NCBI GenBank assembly: GCA_020724525.1
Contig: DYGU01000006.1
Span: forward strand, 13,210 to 77,209
Direction: 5' to 3'
DNA from: Dehalococcoides mccartyi
GTDB lineage: Bacteria; Chloroflexota; Dehalococcoidia; GIF9; DYGU01
DNA: 64,000 nt
Part shown: positions 4,633 through 38,300 of the stretch, one piece after another
Layout of the letters: each line of letters opens with the position of its first letter
Numbering within the stretch: position 1 is the first letter of the stretch
Position numbers and translations under genes: made by a program
The notes under the pieces: generated by a model
Database searches by the model: none
Told to the model about the DNA's origin: nothing
The model's input: the letters and a program-made list of their open reading frames with translations, nothing else

Positions 4633-4640
4633 GAGATTGA

Positions 4641-19838: not shown

Positions 19839-20023
19839 AGCTATCTTTAATAATACTACAATTTTGTGGAGACTGGCAAAGGAGCCCCAGGTCTTCAGGC
19901 AATAAATTAAGGTAGTCAAGTGGTAATAAGAAAGATTGTTTATAAACTCCAACTTTTATATCTGAAGTTCATTTTACCTAAATACAAAATAAGGCATTGC
20001 TCAACACTCTCGTAGTAATAAGA

Positions 20024-20132
20024 GGTTGTTTACCAACGCTTGTCCACCACCCTGAACAAGGCAGAGAAACCCTCACCTACCCTCTCCCTTGAAGGGAGAG
20101 GGATAAGGTGAGGGTGACAAAATAAACACTCT
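20024..20132 (+). repeat. intergenic repeat family A, full copy (~110 bp) with a central 10-bp-stem hairpin
   Basis: The left part is gttgtttaccaacgcttgtccaccaccctgaacaaggcagagaaaccc. The centre is cctctcccttGaagggagagg, a perfect 10+10 palindrome. The right part is ataaggtgagggtgacaaaataaacactctc. Related copies lie at 20766, 26262 (reverse), 34267 (reverse), 4641 and 38270. Confidence 0.7.
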
Positions 20133-20530
20133 CAATAAACCGTTTTTAGCTGTCTTTTGAGTCCTTCCTGGCATTCGCGGCGAGATAGACTGGGAGTCCA
20201 GTTGCGACAGGCTGCCGGTCGGAAAGGATAAATGGTGCGTACGGCCTTTTCCTCCTGGTATTTCAGGAAAACACAGGCGTCACCCTGGCGACGTAAGAGA
20301 TAAGTCCCTGGCTTCAGGGGATATTCCTGGATATATTTCTGGTAGAATTCAAGTACAGGCATATTTAAGGCTCGGGCTATAGTGGCAATTTCACCTTCAT
20401 CAATGGGTGGTTGCCATTTAGTGCAGCAAGTGCCGCAGCAAAGGCAGGGAATAACTTGAGGCTCAATTCCCCCACGCTGCAAATCATATTCTATTTCTTT
20501 CCAGCTTATAGTGCGTAAAATTACTTTCAT
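20132..20530 (-). CDS. YkgJ-family Fe-S/zinc-chelating protein (CxxCxxCC motif)
   Basis: CLCCGTCC...C motif. The start is placed at the internal Met MKVILRT. Confidence 0.55.
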   Translation of the reverse strand: MKVILRTISWKEIEYDLQRGGIEPQVIPCLCCGTCCTKWQPPIDEGEIATIARALNMPVLEFYQKYIQEYPLKPGTYLLRRQGDACVFLKYQEEKAVRTIYPFRPAACRNWTPSLSRRECQEGLKRQLKTVY

Positions 20531-20543
20531 GGCTTTTGAGTGG

Positions 20544-20741
20544 TTAACTTTTTCTGTAAACCTCCACAAATCTCTTTAGGGAGCGGTCATAAGTCCTTTC
20601 TATTTCCGGAGGGAATAAGCAGCCGGGTAGTTGATTATATTTCCAGTGGTAAGAGAGACAGTCGCAGCACTTTCCCTTTCGTTCACAGGGCTCGTAAGTG
20701 CAGGTGCATTTAGCCTTGTTTATTTCCAACTGGCATTCCAT
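20544..20741 (-). CDS. small cysteine-rich protein (8 Cys in 65 aa)
   Basis: MECQLEINKAKCTCTYEPCERKGKCCDCLSYHWKY. It sits immediately upstream of, and is co-oriented with, the YkgJ-like gene. Confidence 0.4.
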   Translation of the reverse strand: MECQLEINKAKCTCTYEPCERKGKCCDCLSYHWKYNQLPGCLFPPEIERTYDRSLKRFVEVYRKS

Positions 20742-20765
20742 ACTTAACCTCCTGTATGAGCGATT

Positions 20766-20906
20766 GATTACCAATGCTTATCCACCATCCTGGGGGGTCA
20801 CCCTCCCTCTGACTCCCTCCCTTGACGGGAGGGAGTATCATTCCCCCCTACCCTCTCCCTTGAAGGGAGAGGAATAAGGTGAGGATGACAAAATAAAGAC
20901 TCTCAA
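20766..20906 (+). repeat. intergenic repeat family A copy with a duplicated hairpin module
   Basis: ttaccaatgcttatccaccatcctg is followed by ctccctcccttgacgggagggag, a second hairpin. That is followed by ccctctcccttgaagggagaggaataaggtgaggatgacaaaataaagactctc. Confidence 0.7.
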
Positions 20907-21934
20907 GTTACGTACTTCTTGCGGATTTGCTCAGAAAGCTCGGATAATAGCTCCAGAGCTTGAATAGCTGCTTCTGGTGACAGGAGTCCAAGTCCGCAAG
21001 AAGGGGTGAGTAGTCCCTGCCTGATGAGTTGCCGAAAAGAAATGCCGTTCCGGGCAAAGAGTACCATAGTCTCTTCAAGGCGGTCACGGAGACTGGCTAC
21101 TGATTCTTTAGCCAGGGCTTCTTCATGATTGGGCACAATCCCCCAGGCTATAGTGCCACCTCGCTTCAGAAAGGATTTTACTTCTGCCGGGTAAAGACTG
21201 AGAGACTCTCCATAGTTATAGGCATCAAAGCTTAATATATCTGTGGTAGTGCCTAAAAGGAGCGACCAGTCAGCACCACCACAACAATGGACGCCTTTAA
21301 GTCCAGATATTCCTGAGAAGACTTCTTCCAGCAAAGTGGTTACTTGCTCATTGGTCACAGCAACAAAAGCTGACCCCAGGGAAGCTAAATAGGGCTCGTC
21401 GACAAAAATAATAGTCTCAACACCAAGCCGTCTCAAACCCTTTTCTTGCCACATGGCTTTTAATTTGAGAAATTTAGCAATGATGTCCGATAAAACATCA
21501 TCATAAAGGACTGCCCGTCGCTCCCGATCAGTAACTGATAGTCCCCAGCTAATGGGTCCGGTAATTTGTCCCTTAACCATTGTCGCTCCTGGAGGTTTTA
21601 TGGTGAGGAAGGCATGGAGTCCAGCAGCATATTCGGCACTTATGGCATACCTTTCAGCATTGTTGTCCAGGTAATCTGTGTACAATTGCTCCAGAGCCTG
21701 GTCGAAATTTGGGGAGCGGTCAACATAGATTTTGTCTTCCTCTACGACTGTACCGGGAAAGCCTTCGCTAAATTGAAGGTACATAATCTCTTTAGGCGAA
21801 CGCTTGGGTAACTGAGCCCAGTGGGGAAGAGCCGGCAAATACTTCATAATTACGGAGTATGCTTCCGCAGGGTCAATATGAGGCATGCTGCCAATACCGG
21901 TAGCTAAGCAACTAAATTCAATTCTTGCTGCCAT
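20903..21934 (-). CDS. MetE-C-terminal-domain-like methyltransferase (core methionine synthase candidate)
   Basis: 343 aa UroD/MetE-fold protein. It sits in a block with metK, ahcY, mtnP and mtnA. The functional call rests on size, fold-level similarity and context. Confidence 0.55.
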   Translation of the reverse strand: MAARIEFSCLATGIGSMPHIDPAEAYSVIMKYLPALPHWAQLPKRSPKEIMYLQFSEGFPGTVVEEDKIYVDRSPNFDQALEQLYTDYLDNNAERYAISAEYAAGLHAFLTIKPPGATMVKGQITGPISWGLSVTDRERRAVLYDDVLSDIIAKFLKLKAMWQEKGLRRLGVETIIFVDEPYLASLGSAFVAVTNEQVTTLLEEVFSGISGLKGVHCCGGADWSLLLGTTTDILSFDAYNYGESLSLYPAEVKSFLKRGGTIAWGIVPNHEEALAKESVASLRDRLEETMVLFARNGISFRQLIRQGLLTPSCGLGLLSPEAAIQALELLSELSEQIRKKYVT

Positions 21935-21940
21935 TCTCTC

Positions 21941-22804
21941 TTATTTAATATATTTCCCAATGAGCAGTGCTAAATCTTTCTTAGCTTTTTCTGGAATAAG
22001 TTTAGGAGAGGTAACAATTGCCTCCTTAAGAGCCGTAGGGCAGGGGCAATTCCGAGGCTCCCCAATTCGTCCTATAGCTCCCCTTAACACCTTTTTGGCA
22101 GCATCCGTGGATTTTTGTAAATTAGCAATAATCATGTCGACAGTCACTGGCTCATAGACATCATACCAGGCATCATAATCGGTAACACAAGCCAAAGTGG
22201 AATAGCAAATTTCAGCTTCGCGAGCCAGCTTAGCTTCAGGTAAAGATGTCATATTAATGATGTCGGCATCCCAGGAACGATGTAGACGTGATTCAGCCCT
22301 TGTCGAGAACTGAGGACCTTCCATAACTACAAGAGTTCCATTTTTGTGTACCTGAACACCGGCTTCTTTGGCTGATTCGTAAAGTATCTGGTTCAGGTCA
22401 GGGCAGAAAGGCTCGGCAAAAGCGACGTGAACCACAAGCCCACCACCGAAGAAGGTGCTGACGCGGTTACGGGTGCGGTCAATAAGCTGGTCTGGAATAA
22501 CCAAGTCTATTGGTCTGAGCTCCTCTTTAAAACTACCTACTGCTGTCACCGAGATAATTCTTTCCACCCCCAGGGATTTTAAGGCATAAATATTAGCCCG
22601 GGACGGTATCTTAGAGGGCAGAATTCTATGTCCCACACCGTGCCGGGGTACAAAGGCTACCCTCACTCCCTCCAGAGTACCAGTCAGTATAACATCGCTC
22701 GGCTCGCCAAAGGGGGTCTTTACTTTCACTTCCTTTGTCTCTGTCAGCCCTTCCATCTGGTAAAGCCCGGTGCCACCGATAATACCAATTTTAGCTTCAG
22801 CCAT
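21941..22804 (-). CDS. mtnP: 5'-methylthioadenosine phosphorylase
   Basis: 287 aa PNP/MTAP family protein (KIGIIGGTGLYQMEGL, phosphate-binding region). Adjacent to mtnA. Confidence 0.85.
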   Translation of the reverse strand: MAEAKIGIIGGTGLYQMEGLTETKEVKVKTPFGEPSDVILTGTLEGVRVAFVPRHGVGHRILPSKIPSRANIYALKSLGVERIISVTAVGSFKEELRPIDLVIPDQLIDRTRNRVSTFFGGGLVVHVAFAEPFCPDLNQILYESAKEAGVQVHKNGTLVVMEGPQFSTRAESRLHRSWDADIINMTSLPEAKLAREAEICYSTLACVTDYDAWYDVYEPVTVDMIIANLQKSTDAAKKVLRGAIGRIGEPRNCPCPTALKEAIVTSPKLIPEKAKKDLALLIGKYIK

Positions 22805-23862
22805 TAAGTTACCTCCTCAACAAGTTTTCTCAATTTGAACTCATAAGGTTCAGTCACTATTCCTTTTTCGGTGATGATAGCCGTTATGTAAAGGTGGGGG
22901 GTTATATCAAAAGCTGGATTAGCTGTTTTTACCCCCTCCGGAGCAATAGGCTTATCCTCAATGTGAGTTACTTCTTTAAAATCCCTTTCTTCAATAGGGA
23001 TTTCATCCCCAGAAGCTATAGAAAGGTCGATAGTACTGGTAGGAGCAGCAACATAGAAGGGGATGCCGTTTTCGGTAGCCAGAACCGCTAAAGTATAAGT
23101 GCCAATCTTATTAGCTACATCGCCATTAGCAGCAATACGGTCAGCTCCGAGGATAACGCAGTTTACTTTGCCTTGGCTCATTAGATAGCCGGCCGCGGAA
23201 TCAACAATTAGGGTCGCTGGAATACCCTCCTGAATAAGTTCCCAGGTAGTAAGGCGGGCTCCCTGGAGGAGAGGGCGGGTCTCGGTAGCTATGACATTAA
23301 TTTTTTTGCCTTGCTTCCAGGCAGCTTTAATTATGCCTAAAGCAGTGCCATAGCTGGCGGTGGCTAAGGAGCCGGTGTTACAATGGGTAAGAATAGTGAA
23401 ACCATTCTCCACTAATTGACTGCCAATCTGGCTCAGGGCTTCACTGGCGGTTTCTTCTTCCCGGTGAATTCTCCTGGCTTCAGCCTGGAGAGCTGTTTTT
23501 ATTAGGTCAATGTCAGTATTTCTTTGGGCTATTTGCTTCATCCTGTTTACAGCTCGGAAAAGGTTAACGGCAGTGGGTCGGGTAGCTTGGAATGTGCTCA
23601 GGATATGATTTAGTTGGCTGTGAAAGTCATCTTTGTTTTTGGTGATAATTTTTTGGGCTCCCAGGGCAATTCCATAGGCAGCGGTAACACCAATAGCTGG
23701 TGCCCCCCGAATTTTCATTTCCTTAATAGCCCGAACCACATCCTCATAGTTACCCAGTTTCAGGAAAACTACTTTTTGAGGTAGTTTGGTCTGGTCGAGG
23801 ATTATAACCTTATCCTTGACGAATTCAATGGGTTTTAGGATCACTTTGTGTTGGCTCCACAA
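22804..23862 (-). CDS. mtnA: methylthioribose-1-phosphate isomerase (eIF-2B alpha/beta/delta family)
   Basis: 352 aa. The ILTHCNTGSLATASYGTALG and VILGADRIAANGDVANKIGTY motifs of the eIF-2B family are present. Confidence 0.8.
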   Translation of the reverse strand: MWSQHKVILKPIEFVKDKVIILDQTKLPQKVVFLKLGNYEDVVRAIKEMKIRGAPAIGVTAAYGIALGAQKIITKNKDDFHSQLNHILSTFQATRPTAVNLFRAVNRMKQIAQRNTDIDLIKTALQAEARRIHREEETASEALSQIGSQLVENGFTILTHCNTGSLATASYGTALGIIKAAWKQGKKINVIATETRPLLQGARLTTWELIQEGIPATLIVDSAAGYLMSQGKVNCVILGADRIAANGDVANKIGTYTLAVLATENGIPFYVAAPTSTIDLSIASGDEIPIEERDFKEVTHIEDKPIAPEGVKTANPAFDITPHLYITAIITEKGIVTEPYEFKLRKLVEEVT

Positions 23863-23881
23863 TTAATTACCCCAAGGTTAA

Positions 23882-25699
23882 TCAATCATTTTTTGGATCT
23901 GGGTCCCCACATCGAAGATTTGGTGCGGTGATAATTAAGCTAACAATTTTATTCTCCCGAATATCTACCAGTCCTGACTCGCAGATACGGAGAAAAGGTA
24001 TTGCAGCAGTGGTTAGGATAGTTAAAGTCAGGTGAGCATCGGGAAAAGGCATACTTAAATCCCTGGCTTTTTGCTGTATTTCAGCCATTTTGTCAACGAT
24101 TGCTTCCATGGGTAAATCTGATACCCCCCCACCTATAGGTAAAGGCAATTCTGCCAGGATTTTCCCCTCGGCATATATTACTATCCCACCTTGTAACTCG
24201 AAAATCCTATTTACGGCTTGTGCCATGTCCCCCTCATTGGTGCCGACAACAATTATTCCGGGTAGATCCCAGGTAGCACTGGAGGCAAAGGCACCTTTAG
24301 TCATTTTAAACCCTTTGATAAAACCGGTAAACATCTTTCCCCGTCCATCAAATCGGTCAATAACGGCTACTTTGATGAGGTCCCGTCTAATGTCCGACTC
24401 CAGCCGACTTTGCCGGGGGACAATAGTTACTTGTTCTTCCCTGGTTACTAAGTCGGTTACTTGATTTATAACTCTTACTGTAACTGGTGTCTCCTTTTCT
24501 TGGGTAAGGATAGTGAAATCGGCTGGTTCGAGCTTTCTGAGGAGGCGAATAGTCTGTCTAAAGCTTCTGGGAAAGGCGATTTTTTGGGGAGGGACTAAGG
24601 TTTTTTGATTTTGAGCCACAATTTTGCCGTTACTGATGACTAATTCGGGACGGATAGTTTTCAGATTAGGAATAATGACTATATCAGCCAGTTTGCCGGG
24701 AGCGATCCCCCCCACAAGGGTATCCAGAGAGAAATGTTCGGCGGCATTTATAGTCACCATTTGTATAGCTATAAGGGGGTCAAAGCCGAGGTCAATGGCT
24801 TTCTGGACAATTTGGTCCATATATCCTTCCTTTAGTAGGGCTCCAGGGCTAATGCCGTCACTAACTAATATGAGACGCCTAAAATCTATGGGTTCTTTTT
24901 TTATTTTAGCGATGGTTGACAGGTCCTTACGGACAGCTCCTTCCCTGACCATAACATAAATCCCCAGCCTCAGTCTGTCTATAACTTCGTCGGCGGTTAT
25001 TGGCTCGTGACAAGATGATACCCCAGTAGCCAGGTAGGATATGAGCTTGTCGTTTCTGGCACCGGCGGTGTGTCCTTCGGCTATTTTCCCAATAGCTAAC
25101 GTCTCGACTATGAGGCTTATTACTCTTTCCTCTTTTTTCACCACCGACAGCCAATAACTTTCTCCCAAACCGACAACCCTGTCTTTTTTGAGAAATTTTC
25201 GCAAAGCCTGAGGTGATAAAGCATATTTACCTGTCTCTGGGCTGATAGTAACCGCAGGCGGCACAGTAACAAAGATTTTCACAGGTTGGTTGTCAAAAGC
25301 TTTAAGATAAGGTAGTAAGGCGGAATAGCCCAGGACGGTGACTGGTTCTATGCCTTCAGTGATTACTGTAGTAGTGCCGGTTTTCAGGGCATGTTTCACA
25401 AATTCAGCTACATTAAATAACCAGAGGATGTGAGTGTGGGCATCGATAAGACCGGGAATAATTGTTTTTCCTTGAGCCTCAATAATTTTAGTTTCTGGTC
25501 CGATAGTATGGGACACATCCTTACCTACATAGGCTATCCTTTCCCCCTTAGTAGCTATGGAGTAGCCGGGCATTATTTCTCGGGCATACACATTAACCAC
25601 ATCCCCACCCAGAACCACCATATCGGCTTTTATTTCGCCTAAAGCTGTGTCCATTAACCTTTTTATCTGCTCCGAGTTCATAGAGTAAGGTAGAGCCAT
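23882..25699 (-). CDS. ade: adenine deaminase
   Basis: 605 aa amidohydrolase. The GLIDAHTHI metal-binding motif is present and the length fits Ade. Confidence 0.8.
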   Translation of the reverse strand: MALPYSMNSEQIKRLMDTALGEIKADMVVLGGDVVNVYAREIMPGYSIATKGERIAYVGKDVSHTIGPETKIIEAQGKTIIPGLIDAHTHILWLFNVAEFVKHALKTGTTTVITEGIEPVTVLGYSALLPYLKAFDNQPVKIFVTVPPAVTISPETGKYALSPQALRKFLKKDRVVGLGESYWLSVVKKEERVISLIVETLAIGKIAEGHTAGARNDKLISYLATGVSSCHEPITADEVIDRLRLGIYVMVREGAVRKDLSTIAKIKKEPIDFRRLILVSDGISPGALLKEGYMDQIVQKAIDLGFDPLIAIQMVTINAAEHFSLDTLVGGIAPGKLADIVIIPNLKTIRPELVISNGKIVAQNQKTLVPPQKIAFPRSFRQTIRLLRKLEPADFTILTQEKETPVTVRVINQVTDLVTREEQVTIVPRQSRLESDIRRDLIKVAVIDRFDGRGKMFTGFIKGFKMTKGAFASSATWDLPGIIVVGTNEGDMAQAVNRIFELQGGIVIYAEGKILAELPLPIGGGVSDLPMEAIVDKMAEIQQKARDLSMPFPDAHLTLTILTTAAIPFLRICESGLVDIRENKIVSLIITAPNLRCGDPDPKND

Positions 25700-25769
25700 T
25701 CAAAACCTCCTCGTCTTGTAATTAAGCACGCTTACTCAACAAGATATTGTTCAGCAATTGTCCAGTTGT

Positions 25770-25850
25770 CATTGCGAGCGAAGGACACCCCACAAAAGTC
25801 GAAACCTTCCCTGCGGGTTGACGAGAGTGAATACATCAATGGAGAGAACA
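25770..25850. repeat. partial copy of intergenic repeat family B (gtcattgcgag... element)
   Basis: tgtcattgcgagcgaaggacaccccacaaaagtcgaaacc shares the gtcattgcgag and ccacaaaa modules with the 38118..38300 element. Confidence 0.45.
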
Positions 25851-25878
25851 GTGAAAAATTGGTTTAGCTACCAAAGTT

Positions 25879-26163
25879 TTAGCTCTTTTGGCTCATATTT
25901 GAAACAATCCTGGCTGTCTTTTCTGGGATTCTTTCAATCAGCTCGGCAATTTTGGCAGTCCTTTCATCCATTCTTTCAAGCAGTTTTACTACTTCCTGAT
26001 GTCTCAATTCTGCTCTTTCATCCATTTTGGCAATTCTTTCATCCAGGTGTAACATCCTTTCATCCATTTTGGCAATAGCTTGCCTCATCAATTTTCCATT
26101 ATTCCAGGCTAAATAAGCAATCACAATTGAAAGCAAGGTAATAGCAAACCCGAAGATTTCCAT
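25879..26163 (-). CDS. small single-pass membrane protein with coiled-coil repeats (paralog 2 of 4)
   Basis: 94 aa with an N-terminal TM helix (FGFAITLLSIVIAYLAW). It is followed by AKMDER-type repeats (QAIAKMDERMLHLDERIAKMDERAELRHQEVVKLLERMDERTAKIAELIERI). Confidence 0.5.
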   Translation of the reverse strand: MEIFGFAITLLSIVIAYLAWNNGKLMRQAIAKMDERMLHLDERIAKMDERAELRHQEVVKLLERMDERTAKIAELIERIPEKTARIVSNMSQKS

Positions 26164-26261
26164 TACATCCCCCTTTGTCTCTAATGTTAAATTTTTAGCT
26201 CCTATATCTTAACAATATCTTTATTTCAAGATTTGGTCAAGAGCCGAGGACATATTGAAAG

Positions 26262-26340
26262 ATTGTTTATTTTGTCACCCTTCCTCAGGAAGGGTTTCTC
26301 CGCCTTGTTCAGGATGGTGGATAAGCATTGGTAAACAACC
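26262..26340 (-). repeat. intergenic repeat family A copy (reverse orientation, variant hairpin ccttcctcaggaagg)
   Basis: ttgtttattttgtcaccc...gggtttctccgccttgttcaggatggtggataagcattggtaaacaa is the reverse complement of the 20024 copy, with a substituted palindrome. Confidence 0.65.
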
Positions 26341-26737
26341 GAGCCTTGTGGGCGAAGAATCTCTATAATTGAATTCCACGACGAAGATAGACTAATACCA
26401 CCTGAAAATTGTATTATAAATTTTGGGTCACTTGAAAACGGAGTTTTATACAGAATCAAAAGGGTTAGTTTAAAAATGTCGTCGCGAGGCTAAAGCCTCG
26501 CCCGAAGCGACCCTAAAGGGTTGCGCTACAAAAACTTGGGGGTGAAAGGCGTTTAGGGTGCTTAAAAATAAACCTGAAATCAAGATTAAACAACCCGCAG
26601 ATATTAAGGGGATTAGCTCCAACTCAGCTAACCCCCTTGGTAGGTTATTCTCCTAATATTTCAAGAAGCACCCTTTTTGCGCAGGGCTTGGCGCCGAGCT
26701 GATAACTTTGCCAGTTTCTGCTTGATAGAGTCTTCCA

Positions 26738-27343
26738 TTATTTGGTGGAACTCACCTCAGCCAGGGCATAATGAGGAGGAAGTATCCCTGTAGGACATAG
26801 AGAGAAGCACTCCCTACACCCAGTGCATTCCTTGCGGGCAATTTTGGGGAAAAACACTACCTCCCGTTGTGTTCCTCTTCCAATGAAACCAATAGCGTGC
26901 TTCTTCTTTATCTCAGCGCAGTAACGCACACATAACCCGCAAAGAATGCAGAAAGTTGGCTCCGTCTCAAACCTTGTTTTTATTTCATATCCTATTACAA
27001 ATTCCCTAATTGTTCGGACGCCAGTTATATCATACCTCATCCCGTACTCCCTTAAGGGTGCGATTCCAGGAGCACGAGCCCACATTAGCTCTAAAAGTAT
27101 CTTACGAATCTTGCTTAATCGATTAGTTTCTGTCTTTACTACAAGCCCATCTTCAGCTGGATAACAGTAAGAAGCTACTAATCGGGAGTGTTGTTCCCGA
27201 ACTATTTCCACAGTGCACAATCGGCACGCACCATAGGGAGCCAATTTTTCATGATGGCAGAGGGTAGGAATGTCAATTCCAACAGTTCGTGCTGCCTCAA
27301 GAAGAGTCATCCCTTCCTTAGCTTTGACTTTTTTTCCTGTCAA
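26738..27343 (-). CDS. 2Fe-2S plus multi-4Fe-4S ferredoxin-domain protein (NuoG/HndC N-terminal-module-like, no catalytic domain)
   Basis: 201 aa. It carries the Cys cluster C-x10-C-x2-C (2Fe-2S), a HxxxC..C His-ligated 4Fe-4S, and the CILCGLCVRYC and CTGCRECFSLCP ferredoxin motifs. It is the last gene of the NuoE/NuoF-like operon. Confidence 0.7.
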   Translation of the reverse strand: MTGKKVKAKEGMTLLEAARTVGIDIPTLCHHEKLAPYGACRLCTVEIVREQHSRLVASYCYPAEDGLVVKTETNRLSKIRKILLELMWARAPGIAPLREYGMRYDITGVRTIREFVIGYEIKTRFETEPTFCILCGLCVRYCAEIKKKHAIGFIGRGTQREVVFFPKIARKECTGCRECFSLCPTGILPPHYALAEVSSTK

Positions 27344-27369
27344 TAATTAAATTGATTGTGCTCATTTTT

Positions 27370-29767: not shown

Positions 29768-29779
29768 CTCTTTAGCTCT

Positions 29780-30766: not shown

Positions 30767-30805
30767 TTCTATTACCTCCTCCTTTTTGTCTTCACCTTGA
30801 ATAGT

Positions 30806-30821
30806 CGCAATTTTCGTGCCA
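30806..30821 (-). promoter_or_regulatory. candidate sigma-54 (-24/-12) promoter TGGCAC-N5-TTGC
   Basis: The minus strand reads TTGGCACGAAAATTGCG. It has GG at -24, GC at -12 and an exact 5-nt spacer. The Cys-rich response regulator start codon lies ~40 nt downstream. rpoN and an NtrC-type activator are encoded immediately upstream. Confidence 0.5.
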
Positions 30822-30825
30822 AAAC

Positions 30826-30860
30826 AAGAAACTACCCTGATAACTTCAGGGTAGTTTCTT
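30826..30860 (-). terminator. perfect 15-bp inverted repeat (terminator of the NtrC-type gene and/or activator binding site)
   Basis: aagaaactaccctga-taact-tcagggtagtttctt. On the minus strand it is followed by GTTTT, which runs into the -24 element. Confidence 0.45.
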
Positions 30861-30924
30861 GTTTGTGTCGATTCGCTTTTATGGCTGATGAAGACTACAT
30901 CATAAGTATAAAGAAATTAAACAG

Positions 30925-32286
30925 TCATTTGTCTATTTTATTTACAACAAGGTCATGTGTTTTTACCTTGTTATAGAGGGTCATTCGAGTGATGCCTAAT
31001 ATTTTTGCCGCCTGGCTCAGGTTTCCTTTAGTTTGTCTAAGTACACTCAGGATGTGGCTCTTTTCCAATTCTTTGAGGCTCTTGTCACTGCTCACAGGAG
31101 CTAAAGGTAGATTTTGGTAAGCCAGGTCAGCTAAAGTTACCAGGCTATCTTTAGCTAAAATAACAGCTCTTTCAATGGCATTTTCCAATTCTCGGACATT
31201 GCCCGGCCAGTGGTATTTCAGAAGGAATTCTTTAGCTTCGGGGGCAAAGCCAGCTATTTCTTTTTGATTTTCCAGAGAGAACTTTTTTAGAAAGTGCTCC
31301 GCCAGAAGGGGAATATCTTCCCTTCTTTCTCTTAAAGGTGGTAAATCTATAGTTACCACATTCAGCCGATAATAAAGGTCTTCTCGGAATTGACCTTGCG
31401 CCACCGCTTTTTTCAAGTCTTTGTTAGTAGCTGAGATAATACGCACATTTACTTTTATAGGCTCATTGCCACCCACCCGAGTGAATTCTTTTTCCTCAGT
31501 GACTCTCAGTAAATGAACCTGGGTGTTAGGGCTTATGTCTCCTATTTCGTCGAGAAACAAAGTGCCCTTATTAGCATATTCAAACTTACCCTTTTTTTGG
31601 GCAATAGCACCAGTGAAAGAACCTTTTTCGTGCCCAAAAAGCTCACTTCCTAAAAGAGTCTCTGAAAGAGCGGCACAGCTTATGGCAACAAAAGGCTTGT
31701 CCTTGCGGGGACTCAAATTATGGACCGCTCGAGCAATAAGTTCCTTACCACTGCCGCTTTCTCCAGTAATCAAGACAGTAGCGTTGCTCTTAGCTATTAC
31801 CTTCACCATTTCAAAAATTTGTTGCATTCGATTACTTTTGGCGATGATATTTTCAAAACGATAGCGGTCTTCCAGTTTCTGGCGCAAGGAGATATTTTCC
31901 TTTATTAGCTTCTGGTGCTCCACCAATTTTTTGATGACCAATTCTACTCTCTCGGGACAGAAAGGCTTCTCAATATAGTCGTAAGCACCCTCTTTGATAG
32001 CAGCAATAGCTGTAGCTATACTGCCATAAGCGGTAATGATAATTATTGGAATATCAGGTGAGAGTTCCTTTACTCTTTTGGTTAACTCGATTCCGTCCAT
32101 CCCCGGCATTACCAAGTCAGCAATAATAATGTCTGGAGTTTCTCTTTGAGCCAGTTGTAAGGCTTCACTCCCATTAGAAGCCGTGGAGACGCTGTAGCCG
32201 ATGTCTTTCAGCCACTCCCAGAGGGACTCGCGGATACTGGCTTCGTCATCAACGATTAAAATCCTGGCTGTTTCCTTCAATGGCAA
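30925..32286 (-). CDS. sigma-54-dependent transcriptional response regulator (NtrC family: REC + AAA+ + Fis-type HTH)
   Basis: 453 aa. The REC domain has DDEASIRESL...D. The AAA+ domain has Walker A GESGSGKE, the GAFTGA-type motif GSFTGA, and an ESELFGHEKG loop. The C-terminal HTH is QAAKILGITRMTLYNKVK. Confidence 0.85.
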   Translation of the reverse strand: MPLKETARILIVDDEASIRESLWEWLKDIGYSVSTASNGSEALQLAQRETPDIIIADLVMPGMDGIELTKRVKELSPDIPIIIITAYGSIATAIAAIKEGAYDYIEKPFCPERVELVIKKLVEHQKLIKENISLRQKLEDRYRFENIIAKSNRMQQIFEMVKVIAKSNATVLITGESGSGKELIARAVHNLSPRKDKPFVAISCAALSETLLGSELFGHEKGSFTGAIAQKKGKFEYANKGTLFLDEIGDISPNTQVHLLRVTEEKEFTRVGGNEPIKVNVRIISATNKDLKKAVAQGQFREDLYYRLNVVTIDLPPLRERREDIPLLAEHFLKKFSLENQKEIAGFAPEAKEFLLKYHWPGNVRELENAIERAVILAKDSLVTLADLAYQNLPLAPVSSDKSLKELEKSHILSVLRQTKGNLSQAAKILGITRMTLYNKVKTHDLVVNKIDK

Positions 32287-34238
32287 GCCTCCAGATAAAC
32301 AGTGAAAGTGGTTCCCTTACCTACCTCGCTATCAACCTTGATTCTACCCTTGTGCCTTTGGATAATGCCATGCACTACTGCCAGCCCCAAGCCAACCCCT
32401 TTCTCCCTCTCTTTGGTAGTGAAAAAAGGAGTGAACAATCGGCGCCTATTTTCTTTAGGGATACCACAGCCAGTGTCGGCTACATCTACTTTAACCCACT
32501 CTTGCTTCTTGCCACCGACTCCCTCTTCAGATATTATCTCTGTCTGCAAGGTTAATCTCCCCCCTTGAGGCATAGCCTGGACAGCATTAAGGATGAGATT
32601 GGTAAAAACCTGACAGAGCTGGTCAAAATCAGCCGTGACCAGACAGCCCTCACCACGGAATTTCTTAACTATTTCCACATTTTGCAATTGAGCTTGATGG
32701 CTGACCAAAGACAAAGCTTGGTCAATAACTTGGTTAGCATCAACTACTTTCAATCTTGGCTCAGACTGTCGGGCAAAATCGAGCAGATTTCGAATTATTC
32801 CGGAACTGCGGCTGACTTCAGCTTCTATTTTTGATAGATAACTCAAGGCTTCTTCTTTAGGTAATCCATCACCACCTAATCTTTTAGACAGGAGTCGGGC
32901 ATAAACTAAAACCCCAGTTAAGGGATTATTTAGTTCGTGAGCAATAGCTGCGGCTAATTGTCCCAGAGAAGTTAATTTTTCCGCCTGAATAAGCTGTTCC
33001 TGAGTTGCCTTTAGGCGCTTGACGACAAAGGGCCAGCACATTTCATTCTCGGCTAAGCCGCGGTAGATAGCAATAGCTTTTTCCCGGCAGGTTTTATAGC
33101 CGCAGGCACCACAGTTGAGTTCATCCTCGGGCTTGGTCTTGTCGGTCAAACTCAAAACACCTCGGATTTCTTCTTCAGTGGGGTAGGGGAGGGAGATATA
33201 GCGATTGGTAAACCGTCGCCTTAAATTTAGATCGCCATATCTTATTAAGTCTTTTTCCGTCTGCTCTGGGTCGGTTTCTTTCAAGGTGTATTCAGTAATA
33301 ATTTGTTTTTTCTTAAAATAATTTAATTCGCTTCTAATTGACGGACCGCTGACACAACCTTCACACATAAAAAGCTCAGCGAAGTTAACTCTAATGTCCC
33401 CTTTGTCAATCTCGTGAATAATTTCCAGCACCCTTTCGGCACCTTCCCCCACTACAGCCTCTTTATCCAAAGGATCGGTGGAAACTCCGATTGCTTTACA
33501 AAATCCACCAGAAATAGCACATAATCGCCCCAAATTTGGTTTGGGACCGAAAAAGGGAGTCTCCCCTAAACTGGCCGGGTCGATAGCTTTTTGGGCAAGA
33601 AGTTCTTCAAGTTCATCAAAGGTTAAAACAGCGTCAATTACACCACCTACCTTCTCATCATCCCGCTCTGCCCTCTTGGCAACACTGGGGGCGATAAAGA
33701 CCACCTTTGTCTCAGGTGGGTAGTATTTCTTAATCAACCTACCCATAGCAATCATGGGGGGCACAATAGGCGCTAAGTTATCAATTAACTGGGGGTAATA
33801 TTTCTCAATATAATAGACTACAGCCGGACATTGAGCGCTAATAATTGGTTTTTGCTTGCTTGTCTTTATTAGTTTTCGGTATTCCTGAATAATGAGGTCA
33901 GCACCAAAGGCTCCTTCTACTACTTGGTTGAACCCCAGTTCTAAGAGAGCAGTTACCAGTTGCCTTGGGCGGATTTCGGGAAAGGCTACCGGGAAGGAAT
34001 AATCAAGGCAAGCGATAGGTGCCGGGGATTTACTCAGTAAAACCCTTGTCGCTCCGATATCGCTTTCTATTTGCTTGGCTTTCTGGCTACAGACTCGGAC
34101 ACAGTTACCACAAGCAATACACCGTTCCTTCATCACTTCAGCCAAGCCCTCTTCCACTTTAATGGCATTAGCTGGACAGCTACGGATACAAGCATAGCAA
34201 CCCTTGCAATTGTCTTTATTAGTGAAGATGACCGCCAT
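32277..34238 (-). CDS. sensor histidine kinase with N-terminal 2x[4Fe-4S] ferredoxin + degenerate [FeFe]-hydrogenase H-cluster-like domain (HydS-like sensory module)
   Basis: 653 aa. The N-terminus has CKGCYACIRSCP and CIACGNCVRVC ferredoxin motifs. A ~300 aa region follows with hydrogenase-like L1/L2/L3 remnants (SAQCPAVV, IAPSVAKRAE with Cys replaced by Ser, ELFMCEGCVSGP). HisKA (AAAIAHELNNPLT) and HATPase_c (GCGIPKENRRRLFTPFFTTK...GLGL) domains follow. It overlaps the NtrC-type gene by 10 nt. Confidence 0.8.
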   Translation of the reverse strand: MAVIFTNKDNCKGCYACIRSCPANAIKVEEGLAEVMKERCIACGNCVRVCSQKAKQIESDIGATRVLLSKSPAPIACLDYSFPVAFPEIRPRQLVTALLELGFNQVVEGAFGADLIIQEYRKLIKTSKQKPIISAQCPAVVYYIEKYYPQLIDNLAPIVPPMIAMGRLIKKYYPPETKVVFIAPSVAKRAERDDEKVGGVIDAVLTFDELEELLAQKAIDPASLGETPFFGPKPNLGRLCAISGGFCKAIGVSTDPLDKEAVVGEGAERVLEIIHEIDKGDIRVNFAELFMCEGCVSGPSIRSELNYFKKKQIITEYTLKETDPEQTEKDLIRYGDLNLRRRFTNRYISLPYPTEEEIRGVLSLTDKTKPEDELNCGACGYKTCREKAIAIYRGLAENEMCWPFVVKRLKATQEQLIQAEKLTSLGQLAAAIAHELNNPLTGVLVYARLLSKRLGGDGLPKEEALSYLSKIEAEVSRSSGIIRNLLDFARQSEPRLKVVDANQVIDQALSLVSHQAQLQNVEIVKKFRGEGCLVTADFDQLCQVFTNLILNAVQAMPQGGRLTLQTEIISEEGVGGKKQEWVKVDVADTGCGIPKENRRRLFTPFFTTKEREKGVGLGLAVVHGIIQRHKGRIKVDSEVGKGTTFTVYLEACH

Positions 34239-34266
34239 TTTCGCTAACCTTTCTAAAGTTATTAAA

Positions 34267-34340
34267 GAGAGTGTTTATTTTGTCACCCTCACCTTATTCC
34301 TCTCCCTTCAAGGGAGAGGGTAGGTGAGCGTTTCTCCACT
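34267..34340 (-). repeat. intergenic repeat family A copy (reverse orientation, truncated)
   Basis: gagagtgtttattttgtcaccctcaccttattcctctcccttcaagggagagggtaggtgagcg is the reverse complement of the hairpin core of the 20024 and 20766 copies. It lies between rpoN and the kinase gene. Confidence 0.65.
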
Positions 34341-34345
34341 TAAGA

Positions 34346-35443
34346 TTATTTATTTGTCATTGCCAAGAGTCTCCTTTGTCGTGAGGATGGGATTTTTAGC
34401 TCTTTCCTGAGACTGGCTATAGTACGTCGGGACAGATATACGCCAAATTTCCTCTCCAGACTAACCTTTATTTTCTGGTCACTAAGAGGTTTTGCCTCTT
34501 GTTCAAGAATTTGCTTGAGCAACTCCTTTCGGAACTTCTTAGGGTTTGGGAAAAAGTCTTTAAGTGCTCTTTCGCCCCAGGGAGTTTCAAGACTTTTATT
34601 AGCGATAACTCGGCTGATAGTGCTTGGGGTTAAGCCAATTTTGGATGCCAGTTCCTTTTGACTGAAAGGCAACAACGCTTTTGGGTTGCCCGATTCAAAA
34701 AATGGAGTTTGCTTTTCAACAATGTTCTGTATTACCTGGTGTAAACTATTTTTCCGGCTATTTATTAACTCTAACTTTCGTAAGAGCTGCCTTATCTCTT
34801 TGACTTCGGTATTGTTGAAAACTCCGTCGTGGAGTAACTGTTCCAGCTTCATATAATCAACAACAAATTTACCTCGGGCATAAGCTGGGGAGAAGTAAGC
34901 AACAGATAACCCCTCAGTTCCCCTTTCTATTGCGGCAACTTTGGAATAATGTTTTCCTTTGTCTGAGATAGAAGAAGGGTGGTAGAACTCGGTGGCAATG
35001 GAAAATTCGTCAATAAGACTGTTTATTTTAGACACTTCTGAAACTTCCAGCTGACACTGGTGGGCAATTTCCTCAACAGTAATCCCGGGCTCCGGGTATA
35101 AGAAATATTGTTTGAAATTGTCTATACCCAGATTTCTGATTAGACCAACCAGTTCCTCTTTATTGGCGATCAAAGATTCCACATCAACCGAGCTTGGGGC
35201 GGCGACAATTTCCTCTTTAAGTTCATAAAAACGGCGAGAAAGATTGGCTTTTGGGAATCGTTGATAGTGAATTACCTTCTCTTGTTCCCGGAGGCGCTTA
35301 AATAGTGAGCTCTTTTCTACCCCAAAAATTAAATACTGGAACTCCACTTCCGACATTTCCAGCAAATTGGCCTGCTCTATTCGGAGAAAAAGTTTGAGTT
35401 CTTGTCTTGTTTCCAGAGATTGGGTTATGTTTGGATTTACCAC
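34346..35443 (-). CDS. rpoN: RNA polymerase sigma-54 factor (short form)
   Basis: 365 aa. The C-terminal RpoN box (YLSRRTIASLRKELKIPSSRQRR) and the HTH (ASKIGLTPSTISRVIANKS) are present. The Leu/Gln-rich N-terminal region I is short. The protein is shorter than typical RpoN (450-500 aa). Confidence 0.8.
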   Translation of the reverse strand: MVNPNITQSLETRQELKLFLRIEQANLLEMSEVEFQYLIFGVEKSSLFKRLREQEKVIHYQRFPKANLSRRFYELKEEIVAAPSSVDVESLIANKEELVGLIRNLGIDNFKQYFLYPEPGITVEEIAHQCQLEVSEVSKINSLIDEFSIATEFYHPSSISDKGKHYSKVAAIERGTEGLSVAYFSPAYARGKFVVDYMKLEQLLHDGVFNNTEVKEIRQLLRKLELINSRKNSLHQVIQNIVEKQTPFFESGNPKALLPFSQKELASKIGLTPSTISRVIANKSLETPWGERALKDFFPNPKKFRKELLKQILEQEAKPLSDQKIKVSLERKFGVYLSRRTIASLRKELKIPSSRQRRLLAMTNK

Positions 35444-35514
35444 TGTAAAAATATTTTACTACTCCTGGGCGAATGGGGCAAACTGACGGGGACAGAATTT
35501 TCCCCCGGGCCTCA

Positions 35515-35817
35515 CTATCCCCTCTGCAAGGATCGAGCTATCATCTCCTGACCTTCCTGGAGCCTTGTAAATCCTTCCTTGAGGTGCCTGGCTATTGACT
35601 GTTGCCCCTCACTAATCTCTTTTAGCCCGTCCATAAGCACTTTCTGTCCTTCCCTAATCTCTCTTAGCCCGTCCATAAGCGCTCTTTGCCCGTCAACAAG
35701 CGCTTTTTGCCCGTCCATAAGCAACCTCATATTGCGTCCATTTGCTCTCCAGATATAAGCAAGGATTACACCGAGAAAAGCCAGGGCTGCTCCTATCATT
35801 CCTGTGGCTATTTCCAT
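35515..35817 (-). CDS. small single-pass membrane protein with coiled-coil repeats (paralog 3 of 4)
   Basis: 100 aa with the TM helix MIGAALAFLGVILAYIW. It carries LMDGQ-type decapeptide repeats (LLMDGQKALVDGQRALMDGLREIREGQKVLMDGLKEISEGQQ). Confidence 0.5.
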   Translation of the reverse strand: MEIATGMIGAALAFLGVILAYIWRANGRNMRLLMDGQKALVDGQRALMDGLREIREGQKVLMDGLKEISEGQQSIARHLKEGFTRLQEGQEMIARSLQRG

Positions 35818-36006
35818 TTATGGTCTCCTTCTGATTTTTTCAAACTTCTCACCTGATAATATCCCCGTTTCCGATTTTAGTCAAGGAAGAATTTGAGATT
35901 GATTATTGCTGCCTGGTCAGTGGGCTCGGTCTCGTTATAACAGCCGGGGAGAGAGAAACATCCGAGTAATCGGTTCGGCAGACCCAGGCGGAAACGATTT
36001 TTATCC

Positions 36007-36408
36007 TTAACCCTTTAAAGGACCAAGGGCTCTCACCTTTTCCGTCATTTCATTTACGACAGAGACAAAGCGGTCACCTTCTGAAGCTGACACCCAGTCC
36101 AATCTCAGTCTTTCCTCTTCAATCCCCATCTGGACTAACATTTTCTTTAGTAATGGTATACGCCGTATAGTCTTATAATTACCTTCGGTATAATGACAAT
36201 CTCCGGGGTGACAACCAAGAGCCAAAACTCCATTAGCACCCAACTAGAAAGCCTTAAGGATAAAGGTAAGCTCCACTCTGCCACTACACATTACTCTTAT
36301 TGTTCTGACATTATGGGCACACTTCATCCTGGCTGTCCCAGCCAGGTCTGCTCCCCGGTAGGAACACCAGTTACACAGGGAACCGATAATCTTAGGTTTA
36401 AAGCTCAT
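36007..36408 (-). pseudogene. MvhD-like hydrogenase/heterodisulfide-reductase-associated Fe-S subunit with an in-frame TAG
   Basis: Hand translation from ATG 36408 gives [54 protein letters not shown]. An in-frame TAG (36244..36246) follows. It then continues LGANGVLALGCHPGDCHYTEGNYKTIRR..., which is the MvhD signature. The track shows only the distal 78 aa. Confidence 0.65.
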
Positions 36409-36431
36409 ACTAATACCCCCCTATTCTAATT

Positions 36432-36790
36432 CCTAAATCTTTTCAATATATGACCTCAGGTCACCCAGATACCCCTCCATTTCGTCGAAGCTTAAAGTGC
36501 CATCGTAGTAACCTTGTATGTGAAAGACATCTCTGAGAAATAAATAATGCCATCTAAGCTCTCTGTCAGCATATTTGAAAACCAAGTATCTTCTCCCCCT
36601 ATCGCCTGAGGTAGCTGCTCTTCTTTGATTCCCTTCTTAATCAAAAGACTATGAGTAGCTTCTATGGTGGAGAACCAACTTTTGGCACAAGCATCCCTTA
36701 AAAGTGTGCCGTCATTTTTCTGTCTTGCCCTGTCAAACTCCTCAAATGCCTTTTCGTAGAGCCTTCTTGCTTCTTTCAGATGATTTTCTG
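36432..36790 (-). pseudogene. small helical (HEPN-like?) gene remnant with a frameshift and no canonical start
   Basis: The minus strand reads ...LSSENHLKEARRLYEKAFEEFDRARQKNDGTLLRDACAKSWFSTIEATHSLLIKKGIKEEQLPQAIGG. It then continues in the +1 frame (RRYLVFKYADRELRWHYLFLRDVFHIQGYYDGTLSFDEMEGYLGDLRSYIEKI). A strong AAGGAGAT Shine-Dalgarno-like sequence lies upstream but no ATG/GTG/TTG start follows. The family assignment is uncertain. Confidence 0.3.
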
Positions 36791-36793
36791 AAC

Positions 36794-37933
36794 TCAGATT
36801 ATCTCCTTAACATCTTTAATTTCAATAACATCAGCTTTATCCATAGTAAGCACGCTGTCATCAAAATTGAGGATACAGTAAGGGTAGGCTGTGGCTAAAA
36901 CTTCAGCTCCAACATCTATTGCCTGCTCTAACCTTATGTCCGAAAATCTTTCACCTTTTTTGGTTTCCTGCCAGATTCTGCCGCCACCACCACAGCAAAG
37001 GCTATTTTCTCGGCTATCCGGCATTTCCAGAAAATCCAGACCTAGAATGCTCTGTAGCAATTGCCGCGGGGTGTCGTATATATTGTTATGCCGCCCTAAG
37101 TAGCACGGGTCATGATAAGCTACCTTTTTCTTAATTTCCTTCCTAAACTTTAATCTTCCTTCTTCAAGTAGTTGCCTCAGGTACTGAGTGTAATGAAGGG
37201 TCTCAAAATTACTGCCAAGCTTAGGGTATTCATTTTTGAAGGTATGATAGCAATGGGGAAAGCTAACCACGACTGTCTTCATACCTTTTCCCCTAAAAGT
37301 AACGATGTTGCTCCTGGCTAACTTCTCAAAAAGCTCTTCATTCCCAGCTTTCCTAACGCTTTCGCCACAGCAGAGCTCTTCCGAGCCTAAAATACCAAAA
37401 TCTACCTCGGCTTTCTTAAAGATGTTAGCTAAAGAATGAGACATTCTTTTTACCTTAGGGTCATAAGCAGACACACAGCACGAAAAATATAAAAGCTCCT
37501 TATCTGGAGAAAACCTTTCTACACCCAAATCTTTCGCCCAATCGGCTCGCCTTTCGGCGGCTTCTCCCATAGGATTGCCCACAGCAGAGATATTTTCCAT
37601 AGTAAGTCTCAGTGAATCAGGCACATAACCTACCCCAAATCCTACTGGAATTCTACGCACAGCCCTCATGACATCTATTATCTCCACCCCTCGGGGACAC
37701 CGTTCAACACAAGCCCGACAGGTGACACAGAGCCACCAGATTTCGTCTTCAAAGTTAACCAGCCCTAATTATGTCTGACGCACCATCCGGCGAACAATGA
37801 AACTTCTCACCTGATTCCAGGGACAAATCCCACTACAGAGACCACATTGATAACACAGTTTAAAAGCTTCACCACCGGCTTCTTTTATGAAATCCAGAGT
37901 TTCTCGAGATGGGCTTACTGCCTGTACAGCCAT
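36794..37933 (-). pseudogene. HdrD/GlcF-like Fe-S oxidoreductase (4Fe-4S ferredoxin + two CCG domains) with an in-frame TAA
   Basis: Hand translation from ATG 37933 gives MAVQAVSPSRETLDFIKEAGGEAFKLCYQCGLCSGICPWNQVRSFIVRRMVRQT. An in-frame TAA (37769..37771) follows, then LGLVNFEDEIWWLCVTCRACVERCPRGVEIIDVMRAVRR... The 297 aa track ORF follows, carrying CCG motifs (FSCCVSAYDPKV, LCCGES, HDPCYLGRHN, LCCGGGG). Confidence 0.65.
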
Positions 37934-38117
37934 AATGTTTCTCCTTTTTTAGCCTATTATTTTTCTTCAGACAAACAAAAAAGGTAGTTATTTAGCCAAG
38001 TATTAGCGACATAACTACCGGGAAACAAAAGATAAATTTGAGCCAACATTACGCGGGTATTCTAAAACAGTTTTCAGCCTTTTGACAATGCCTTTTGTAA
38101 AAGAGTATTTATCAACC

Positions 38118-38300
38118 CCATTCTGTCATTGCGAGAGGCGTTAGCCCCGAAGCAATCCCAAGAGATTGCCGCGCTTCTTACACCCAGCCGAATCCTAGAT
38201 TCGGCTGGGAACCCGGTGTCGCCACAAAATCATAGATTTTGTGGGGTGTTCTTCGCTCGCAATGACGGGTAAGCATTAGTAAACATCTCTCTTGCAATGA
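38118..38300. repeat. intergenic repeat family B: MITE-like element with terminal inverted repeats (gtcattgcgag / ctcgcaatgac) and two internal hairpins
   Basis: gtcattgcgagaggcg...cagccgaatcCTAgattcggctg...ccacaaaatcATAgattttgtgg...ctcgcaatgac is followed by taagcattagtaaaca, a family A fragment. Partial relatives lie at 25770 and 26475. Confidence 0.6.

Follow-up and report, generated by a model that had tools for sequence, protein, structure and literature searches.

The window analysed here, 64,000 nucleotides of contig DYGU01000006.1 (assembly GCA_020724525.1), carries structured intergenic repeats that a preliminary description had sorted into two families, family A, centred on a hairpin, and family B, bounded by inverted repeats. 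We find that the two hairpin modules exist but are alternative cargo in one frame bounded by terminal inverted repeats (TIRs), and not independent families. The repeats probably constitute a single lineage-specific, TIR-bounded family with interchangeable cargo that has spread by insertion, is non-autonomous in the manner of miniature inverted-repeat transposable elements (MITEs) or repetitive extragenic palindromes (REPs), and has ends that are targeted by an insertion sequence (IS) of the IS110 family.

The elements insert into intergenic DNA within a Dehalococcoidia lineage, often flush with a stop codon and in some cases in a ribosomal-protein operon. On this reading they would be moved in trans by an enzyme that is not encoded nearby, and would persist because their landing sites cause little harm. 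The TIR core AGAG(N)TG|TTTA serves as the specific insertion site of the IS110-family element, putatively under the guidance of a bridge RNA, and the elements would act as genome-plasticity hot spots rather than as regulatory signals.

Families A and B share one frame

The frame is defined by a left end (L-end), AGAGRYTGTTTACYAATG, and a right end (R-end), ATAAACRCTCT (reverse complement AGAGYGTTTAT), which together form an imperfect TIR of 11-12 bp. A scan for the TIR core found AGAG(N)TGTTTA at both termini of elements E1, E2, E3, E6, E7, E8 and E9 (Table 1). Three types of cargo lie between these shared ends: a polypyrimidine/polypurine hairpin of the BoxC/PIT/TM type (family A), a GTCATTGCGAG...CTCGCAATGAC palindrome (family B), and a pair of small hairpins designated B2. 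Multiple alignment of family A is likewise modular, with a left arm (GRTTGWTTACYAAYGCTTRTCCACCAYYCTGaACAAGGYGGAGAAACC), a central hairpin built from the blocks CCCTCACCT-A-CCCTCTCCCTT-G-AAGGGAGAGGG-ATA-AGGTGAGGG, and a right end (TGACAAAATAAACACTCT). In E3 the central hairpin is replaced at the same position by a short one, CCCTTCC-TGA-GGAAGGG, and other copies carry an additional hairpin or consist of one part alone (Table 1). The elements measure 51-189 bp, occur in both orientations and have no coding capacity beyond spurious short open reading frames (ORFs).

We treat A and B as one family because A-type ends also bound different interiors, in E7, E8, E9 and the upstream part of locus L181, an independent locus at which A-type ends again surround B-like cargo upstream of an IS copy. 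Family B, first placed at 38118..38300, is present as a palindromic core inside E7, with an R-end (AGAGTATTTATCAACC...) from 38102 on one side and an L-end (...GGGTAAGCATTAGTAAACATCTCT) ending at 38290 on the other. What had been listed as a family A fragment at 38270 is the L-end of E7, because B at 38125-38266 sits between the two ends. The partial relatives of B noted at 25770 and 26475 are also present, as a decayed E7-type copy, in which a decayed L-end precedes the 30-nt B fragment at 25768, and as E10. The right half of the mini copy E11 matches E7 at ~29/31 positions.

A self-comparison was made of the contig after its extension to 81.5 kb; copy counts below cover these 81 kb and the other contigs found. 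Copies are 83-97% identical to one another in the self-comparison. There are about nine in the window, where repeat DNA makes up ~1.5% of the sequence, and about ten in the 81 kb. Other contigs hold five or more additional copies next to IS copies, one of them from the same Joint Genome Institute (JGI) sample. A 33-mer of the left arm matches at 4641, 20030 and 26302 (minus strand) with at most 3 mismatches, and a 21-mer of the right arm at 20113, 20884, 26259 (minus) and 34267 (minus), with 0 matches expected from shuffled sequence in either case; GTCATTGCGAG is present at 25768, 38125 and 38256 (minus). Repeat finding and an nhmmer profile search recover the same copies, and all of the family A copies and fragments initially listed are present. 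Further copies exist beyond the window and the copies are bounded, which argues against the chance similarity that the preliminary description had allowed for.

E1, E7, E8 and the B core are all predicted to fold far more stably than shuffled sequences (z -4.5 to -8), with a closing stem formed by the two element ends. E1, whose ends pair, has z=-5.7 as RNA and -4.5 as DNA; the values are -6.8 for E7 as DNA and -7.2 and -8.0 for the two strands of the B core. The original view of structured, bounded, multi-copy intergenic repeats with MITE-like anatomy (pairing ends, non-coding sequence, both orientations) is borne out. The elements share with bacterial MITEs a short length (<~300 bp), the absence of coding sequence, TIRs, a dispersed multi-copy distribution and insertion polymorphism.

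Pneumococcal BOX (boxA-boxB(n)-boxC), Neisseria Correia/NEMIS and enterobacterial ERIC sequences are bacterial MITE-like modular repeats, Correia elements duplicating TA. The window elements resemble them in being short, non-coding and multi-copy, with pairing ends and a modular interior, in both orientations and often within operons. They differ from them in showing no sequence similarity, in having no established cognate transposase or fixed duplication, and in carrying cargo modules that belong to pan-bacterial hairpin classes.

The repeats are not an assembly artefact, because the contig recurs in independent assemblies (JGI, an NCBI Third Party Annotation record and several Logan runs). 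In reverse complement, the window corresponds to JGI contig Ga0246236_1000096 (109 kb), and it is also represented by DYFN01000003.1 of GCA_020725225.1 and in several Logan assemblies. Short-read contigs break off inside elements.

The elements inserted within a Dehalococcoidia lineage

The host is an uncultured member of Dehalococcoidia, because its SecY protein resembles those of metagenome-assembled genomes (MAGs) labelled 'Dehalococcoidia bacterium' (74-76% identical). We compared insertion sites with those of relatives, namely GCA_042408205.1 (loci L051 and L179), with proteins 76-87% identical and conserved gene order, and two others (L053 and L180). Five orthologous sites in these relatives are empty. 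Between the MetE-like and DUF6485 genes the relatives (L051, L053) have a 10-nt spacer, whereas the window has 161 nt containing E2. At the infA to rpmJ site the relatives (L179, L180) are missing exactly the 51 nt of E5, and the same two loci are without E11 between adk and map. The spacer between the phosphoribosyltransferase and adenine deaminase genes measures 7 nt in the relative and 265 nt, including E8, here. The CxxCxxCC gene and its neighbour overlap in the relative and are separated here by E1. The 58 kb of syntenic DNA from the relatives contain 0 TIR cores, BoxC-like hairpins or B termini, as against nine TIR cores in 81 kb here.

E1 and E2 bracket the DUF6485/CxxCxxCC gene pair, as had been noted for what was then called a YkgJ/Cys-rich pair, but they are separate insertions. 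Synteny rules out E1 and E2 as a composite unit, since the relative has both genes without the repeats.

A scan with a 20-mer of the left arm gave 18 genome and 28 metagenome matches, approximately the number expected by chance, of which only L010, L022 and L044 are true. Among 185,579 species genomes only one true match lies outside the host population, on a 1.6-kb contig of the same mine data set, and IMG/VR holds none. Other public DNA with the element comes only from the same data sets, which their record names place in African mines. From these comparisons the elements appear to be lineage-specific insertions that spread within a Dehalococcoidia lineage.

E8 is flanked by perfect direct repeats of 5 bp (CCTTG), as is the tail-to-tail pair E9+E6 (AATTC), and the sequences flanking E1 agree at 4/5 positions. 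By a rough estimate, the chance of two perfect 5-mers in about eight tests is ~1e-4.

The elements also coincide with a rearrangement. The GYD gene and a second adenine deaminase gene, adjacent in the relative, are here ~40 kb apart and mutually inverted, and three copies, the decayed E7-type one, E3 and E10, occupy the synteny break beside the deaminase gene (25700-26737). This coincidence of the break with the cluster at 25.7-26.7 kb agrees with the earlier proposal that the repeats are recombination hot spots.

An IS110-family element occupies element ends

The additional copy at L010 (= L183) adjoins a gene for a 339-aa IS110-family transposase with the Pfam domains DEDD_Tnp_IS110 and Transposase_20. 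The identical protein is encoded on nine contigs from seven samples, one of which is the window's own. The IS is ~1.2 kb long and has 13-bp subterminal inverted repeats; its non-coding sequence is short on the 5' side of the gene and long on the 3' side. At five or more loci it is inserted at the same position and in the same orientation in the element end, after the TG of the TIR core AGAG(N)TG|TTTA. The junctions read ...AGAGGTTG|ATTACATGAAAAAGCCGACC..tnp..GGTCGGCTTTTTCAGAGATG|TTTACCAATGCTTATCC, and every contig that reaches a junction agrees. Left flanks are variable, with at least five distinct sequences ending AGAG..TG (...AGAGGTTG or ...GAGAGTG). To the right of the IS stands TTTACCAATGCTTATCCACC, followed, after TTTACCAATGC, by at least four distinct A interiors. 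One locus is uninterrupted in L181 (GAGAGTGTTTACCAAT) and occupied in L189 (GAGAGTG|ATTACATG). The suggestion that the repeats are insertion hot spots holds in this form, and because the IS inserts in their ends and copies cluster at a synteny breakpoint we regard the elements as likely plasticity hot spots.

By its sequence features the IS appears to fit the IS1111 group of the IS110 family. This group targets repeated palindromes by means of a bridge RNA, and by analogy the IS studied here may be guided in the same way; Rfam gave no match on the IS contig, and permissive thresholds gave noise. Durrant et al. and Hiraizumi et al. are said to have described, in 2024, the insertion of IS621 into E. 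coli REPs and IS1111-group elements with subterminal repeats and a 3' bridge RNA. The present IS would resemble those elements in its IS110 transposase domains, 13-bp subterminal repeats, long 3' non-coding region and same-orientation insertion in a repeated palindrome. It differs in that the target is the TIR of a MITE-like element and not a REP stem, in that its joined ends resemble the target, and in that its bridge RNA is a prediction. It provides a natural case of an IS110-family element landing in a MITE-like end, which could be used for reading the target code of the putative guide RNA.

The predicted junction of the joined IS ends, CAGAGATG.ATTACATG, closely resembles the element L-end AGAGATTGATTACTAATG, so that the repeats might be derived from the IS or moved by its recombinase. 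Most copies are without target-site duplications, as IS110-family insertions typically are, and E2 and E5 carry an 'ATTAC' variant that is otherwise found at left IS junctions. We consider this origin highly improbable, however: the elements are without the 13-bp subterminal repeats of the IS (GAAAAAGCCGACC), their recognisable ends are inverted whereas an IS110 donor is bounded by direct cores, and a 67% identical IS in another organism, ending ...CAGAGATG|TTTAAATAGC, sits at a TTTA site outside such an element.

Several observations weigh against our preferred reading of a MITE-like family that spreads by insertion and is targeted by the IS. Target-site duplications, one of the features that the preliminary description singled out for checking, accompany E8 and the E9+E6 pair but not E2, E3, E7, E11 or the L183 copy, and cut-and-paste transposition with a fixed duplication is not established. 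The 81 kb encode no transposase with matching ends. E5 consists of the left arm only and directly abuts an ancestral R-end-like sequence, which whole-element transposition does not predict. The placement of the IS in the same genome rests on co-occurrence in samples and on ~90% identical A sequence, without a physical link to the window contig. Because the duplications are inconsistent, E5 is partial and there is no transposase in 81 kb, we go no further than proposing a non-autonomous, mobile palindromic element that is moved in trans.

Separately, the IS is always assembled as contigs of <1.8 kb that break at its ends. One of these (DYFG01000231.1, 1.6 kb) has been assigned to a Nitrosotalea MAG, probably through mis-binning of host DNA caused by the repeats.

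The family A hairpin resembles the BoxC motif, and a general terminator role is not supported

Over 38 nt, the central hairpin of E1 shares 92% identity with intergenic BoxC loci of E. coli (E=6e-5), with matches in 3965/5426 E. coli genomes; the mrcB-hrpB spacer, for example, reads CCCCTCTCCCTTGAGGGAGAGGGTTAGGGTGAGGGTGA. By sequence, the A hairpin appears to belong to an already known class, the intrastrand-triplex motif called BoxC, PIT or TM_ECO, which has the consensus CCCTCNCCC N3-6 GGGNGAGGG N3 GGGNGAGGG, is found in >260 genomes and has been tied to local genomic instability (Holder et al. 2015, PMC4666352). E1, which reads CCCTCTCCC TTGAA GGGAGAGGG ATA AGGTGAGGG, has one mismatch to this consensus, in block 3, and E2 and E4 have one or two more. 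E1, E2, E4 and E6 have the same block order and almost the same sequence as the E. coli motif, CCCTCTCCC-loop-GGGAGAGGG-loop-(A/G)GGTGAGGG, and share its intergenic location and lack of strand bias. The window motif differs in being cargo within a larger TIR-bounded element and in having an upstream CCCTCACCT block that pairs with the third block to give a 20-bp hairpin. Its host is also a member of Dehalococcoidia, in contrast to an enterobacterium or cyanobacterium, and the motif reaches well beyond those groups. Nearest-neighbour folding of the A element predicts the hairpin only, and triplex formation would be by analogy with the class.

The preliminary description proposed that copies might serve as terminators. 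A general terminator role is not supported, because a consensus terminator scan calls no A hairpin, orientations relative to the flanking genes are mixed and E6 and E7 lie between divergently transcribed genes. Terminator-like sites number 23 as against 22.4 expected from shuffles. On visual inspection, a U-rich tail on the transcribed (minus) strand is confined to E1, whose 20-bp hairpin is followed there by UUUCUCUG; the hairpins of E3 and E4 are followed by UGACAAAAU and that of E2 by AAUGAUAC.

The repeats could still be selected cis-acting RNA elements of a broader kind, such as terminators, 3'-end stabilisers, RNase III sites or translation signals. The predicted folds are very stable on both strands, several copies lie directly after stop codons, the E1 hairpin has the tail just described, and in phages a BoxC-type block with Shine-Dalgarno-like character stands 0-12 nt upstream of ATG (see below). 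In addition to the scan and the mixed orientations, however, E5 and E11 lie inside a ribosomal-protein operon, in which a terminator would do harm, E3 has another central hairpin and E5 has none, and the orthologous operons of the relatives work without the elements. We therefore judge an RNA function improbable. The earlier experiments on E. coli PIT/BoxC that are cited in PMC4666352 are reported there to have found neither promoter nor terminator activity. Only two cobalamin riboswitches pass the Rfam gathering score in the whole window; the best sub-threshold match on the elements is STnc560 (24.5 bits, threshold 55), and permissive runs on three repeat regions gave noise.

The family B palindrome is widespread in phage contigs

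The 16-mer GTCATTGCGAGCGAAG of the family B terminus occurs in >120 IMG/VR contigs among the matches listed, in which B copies are often complete palindromes of 80-89 nt (CGTCATTGCGAGCGAAGCGAAGCAATCCAG-loop-CTGGATTGCTTCG..CTCGCAATGACG). The B terminus thus belongs to a very widespread class and is not lineage-specific. BLAST of plasmid and phage sequences with family B gave no match, the E-value limits being such that short palindromes of this kind are missed, and a literature search by literal repeat strings (gtcattgcgag, cattgcgagcgaag) returned nothing relevant.

The contigs found with the B 16-mer total 1.14 Mb and contain ~35 BoxC-like hairpins and 361 B termini, as against 0 of either in 259 kb of control loci. 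On many of the phage contigs a B half-unit is fused directly to a BoxC block, with an ATG within 0-12 nt. Between the late genes of tailed phages, a near-invariant cassette, TCTCCTCTCCCTTGAyGGGAGAGGATTAAGGTGAGGGTGA, precedes start codons by 0-12 nt; GTCATTGCGAGCGAAGCGAAGCAATC often stands in front of it, and the 3' block of the cassette resembles a ribosome-binding site (IMG/VR loci L065, L150, L193, L196, L203, L204, L212 and others). The contigs with cassettes are structural modules of tailed phages. Their assignment to Microviridae, single-stranded DNA phages that would fit a hairpin/HUH mechanism, was ruled out, as they encode HK97-type major head proteins. Tandem arrays of a 28-nt B half-unit, GTCATTGCGAGCGAAGCGTGGCAATCCG, with copies 9-17 nt apart, were also seen (L070 2753-2830 and 12666-12790; L080); this spacing is too short for CRISPR.

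The B termini, (C/T)GTC-AT...AT-CC(A/C), are similar to those of the CGTC-tagged REP superfamily, which includes Neisseria dRS3/NIME and Rickettsia RPE-4/6 (Di Nocera et al. 2013, PMC3733652). The tags of the window copy are tGTCATTGCGAG on the left and CTCGCAATGACg on the right, and of 56 complete copies on phage contigs, 38 have C and 16 have T before GTC. The tail is CCC in the window copy and, among 296 phage-contig units, CTC in 104, CCA in 88 and CCG in 45. Inverted pairing, the absence of an associated transposase and interleaving with other modules in mosaic intergenic regions are further likenesses. The superfamily is defined by an unpaired CGTC (or TGTC/CCTC) tag at one end, an 8-9 bp stem whose first pairs are A-T and T-A, a 4-5 nt loop and a short unpaired tail with the consensus CCA (PMC3733652). 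Family B departs from it in the stem, which starts AT and is only 5 bp long (ATTGC/GCAAT), and in the 12-21 nt between the arms, often containing a small variable hairpin. The window copy also has two extra hairpins nested in one arm and sits inside A-type ends.

These likenesses bear on the main rival explanation, in which the hairpin modules themselves are the mobile units, comparable to REPs or bacterial interspersed mosaic elements (BIMEs). They would be copied into the loop or centre of existing palindromes by an enzyme acting on single-stranded hairpins, such as an HUH/RAYT-like transposase, or by a replication-linked process, and the elements would be nested accumulations of them. Palindromes are nested in the window (two hairpins in the right arm of B, B within A-type ends, the BoxC hairpin between left arm and R-end), the replaced hairpin of E3 would be one such module at a shared position, and E5 would be a single module inserted without duplication, like most copies. 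The CGTC/TGTC tag of the B terminus resembles that of a superfamily with no known transposase, and direct fusions of these two modules occur in unrelated phage contigs. Nevertheless, the conserved ends travel with different cargo, which argues that the ends are the recognised unit, and two perfect 5-bp duplications flank copies. As regards features of GTAG REPs and REPtrons, no GTAG tag was found at any element end and no RAYT, Y1 or IS200-like gene in 81 kb. Insertion of E8 into the loop of a stable hairpin was also considered and rejected, as the reconstructed target folds no better than shuffles (z=-0.3). On balance we think it unlikely that the hairpins are the mobile units.

A more speculative and rather improbable extension is that BoxC-type hairpins and GTCATTGCGAG-type palindromes make up one pan-prokaryotic and phage set of mobile cassettes that insert into each other in a hairpin-directed manner. 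In Dehalococcoidia they would ride in a TIR carrier whose end co-evolved with an RNA-guided IS1111-type recombinase. If so, the recombinase, whose joined ends mimic the carrier end, might also move or rearrange carriers.

We regard the repeats as a well-characterised example of an ordinary kind of selfish intergenic repeat, and not as a new category. They mark recent insertions and a synteny break in deep-subsurface Dehalococcoidia. They also break short-read assemblies, create spurious ORFs and extend adk, the reading frame of which runs through E11 for ~11 codons.

Copies and neighbouring features

Table 1. Repeat copies and their parts (window coordinates; window-equivalent where stated).
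Feature	Position	Strand	Description
E11	3599-3656	+	58-nt mini copy at the adk/map junction; A-type ends, B interior collapsed to the palindrome GTCATGAC
E5	4633-4683	+	Left arm, 51 nt; directly after the infA stop codon, upstream of rpmJ
Decayed R-end-like remnant	19975..20012	+	ACAAAATAAGG..CAACACTCTCG; abuts E1; TIR-like match at 19995-20012
E1	20021-20132	+	Full family A copy (L-end, left arm, central hairpin, R-end); nhmmer E=5e-42
Central hairpin of E1	20070..20114		BoxC/PIT/TM type; CCCTCACCT A CCCTCTCCCTT G AAGGGAGAGGG ATA AGGTGAGGG
E2	20759-20903	+	Full copy with an extra polypyrimidine/polypurine hairpin; between the MetE-like gene stop codon and the DUF6485 gene
Decayed E7-type copy	25742-25830	+	Degenerate L-end and 30-nt right end of B at 25768-25797 (97% over 30 nt)
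E3	26260-26343	-	E1-like ends and left arm, short hairpin
E10	26465-26570	+	Degenerate, B2-type cargo of two small hairpins, GAGGCTAAAGCCTC and GCGACCCTAAAGGGTTGC; aligns with two B2 elements outside the window
E4	34266-34342	-	Right half (hairpin and R-end) alone; between the rpoN-like ORF and the histidine kinase gene; E=4e-26
E7	38102-38290	-	A-type ends, AGAGTATTTAT.. and ..TAGTAAACATCTCT, around family B; divergent intergenic region
Family B core	38125-38266		142-bp palindrome with perfect 11-bp termini GTCATTGCGAG/CTCGCAATGAC and three inner AATC..GATT hairpins
E8, E9	Contig just beyond window		Two small B2 hairpins between A-type ends
E6	Contig just beyond window		Between divergently transcribed genes; forms a tail-to-tail pair with E9
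Further full copy	70812-70923 (window-equivalent)		From the profile search of the extended contig

The copy that had been described as separating rpoN from its kinase gene is E4. The rpoN-like ORF (365 aa) ends ...RRLLAMTNK*, and its last codons overlap GTCATTGCCAAGAG on the opposite strand (34346-34380), a B-terminus-like sequence adjoining E4; the end of this gene may be derived from a repeat.

The two cobalamin riboswitches (48163-48287 and 57144-57269) lie upstream of cobalamin transport/salvage genes and account for a direct repeat, D2 (81% over 142 nt). Genes for small proteins with an N-terminal membrane helix and heptad repeats, which match no Pfam family, form a set of five paralogs in 81 kb: 25879-26163, 35515-35817 and 56549-56833, all on the minus strand, L055 19949-20299 and L054 5078-5299. 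One of them lies between rplB and rpsS, where relatives have 0-3 nt, and a 21-nt tandem repeat at 35603-35728 encodes the heptads of one paralog. An inverted duplicate of 257 nt, 94.5% identical between 35649-35905 and the window-equivalent 68233-68489 (L055 19861-20117), covers one small heptad-repeat gene and its upstream region, with one copy across the synteny break, beside the GYD gene.

The nitronate monooxygenase-like (NMO) gene at L055 18381-19337 (window-equivalent 66753-67709) is split into ORFs of 127 aa and 68 aa and is probably a pseudogene; the relative has a single 319-aa ORF. A toxin-antitoxin cluster at 61.9-64 kb and L055 13611-15728 comprises two HepT/nucleotidyltransferase pairs and PIN/MazE, and the two copies of a 113-nt direct repeat, at 63328-63440 and the window-equivalent 64209-64321, are 93% identical.

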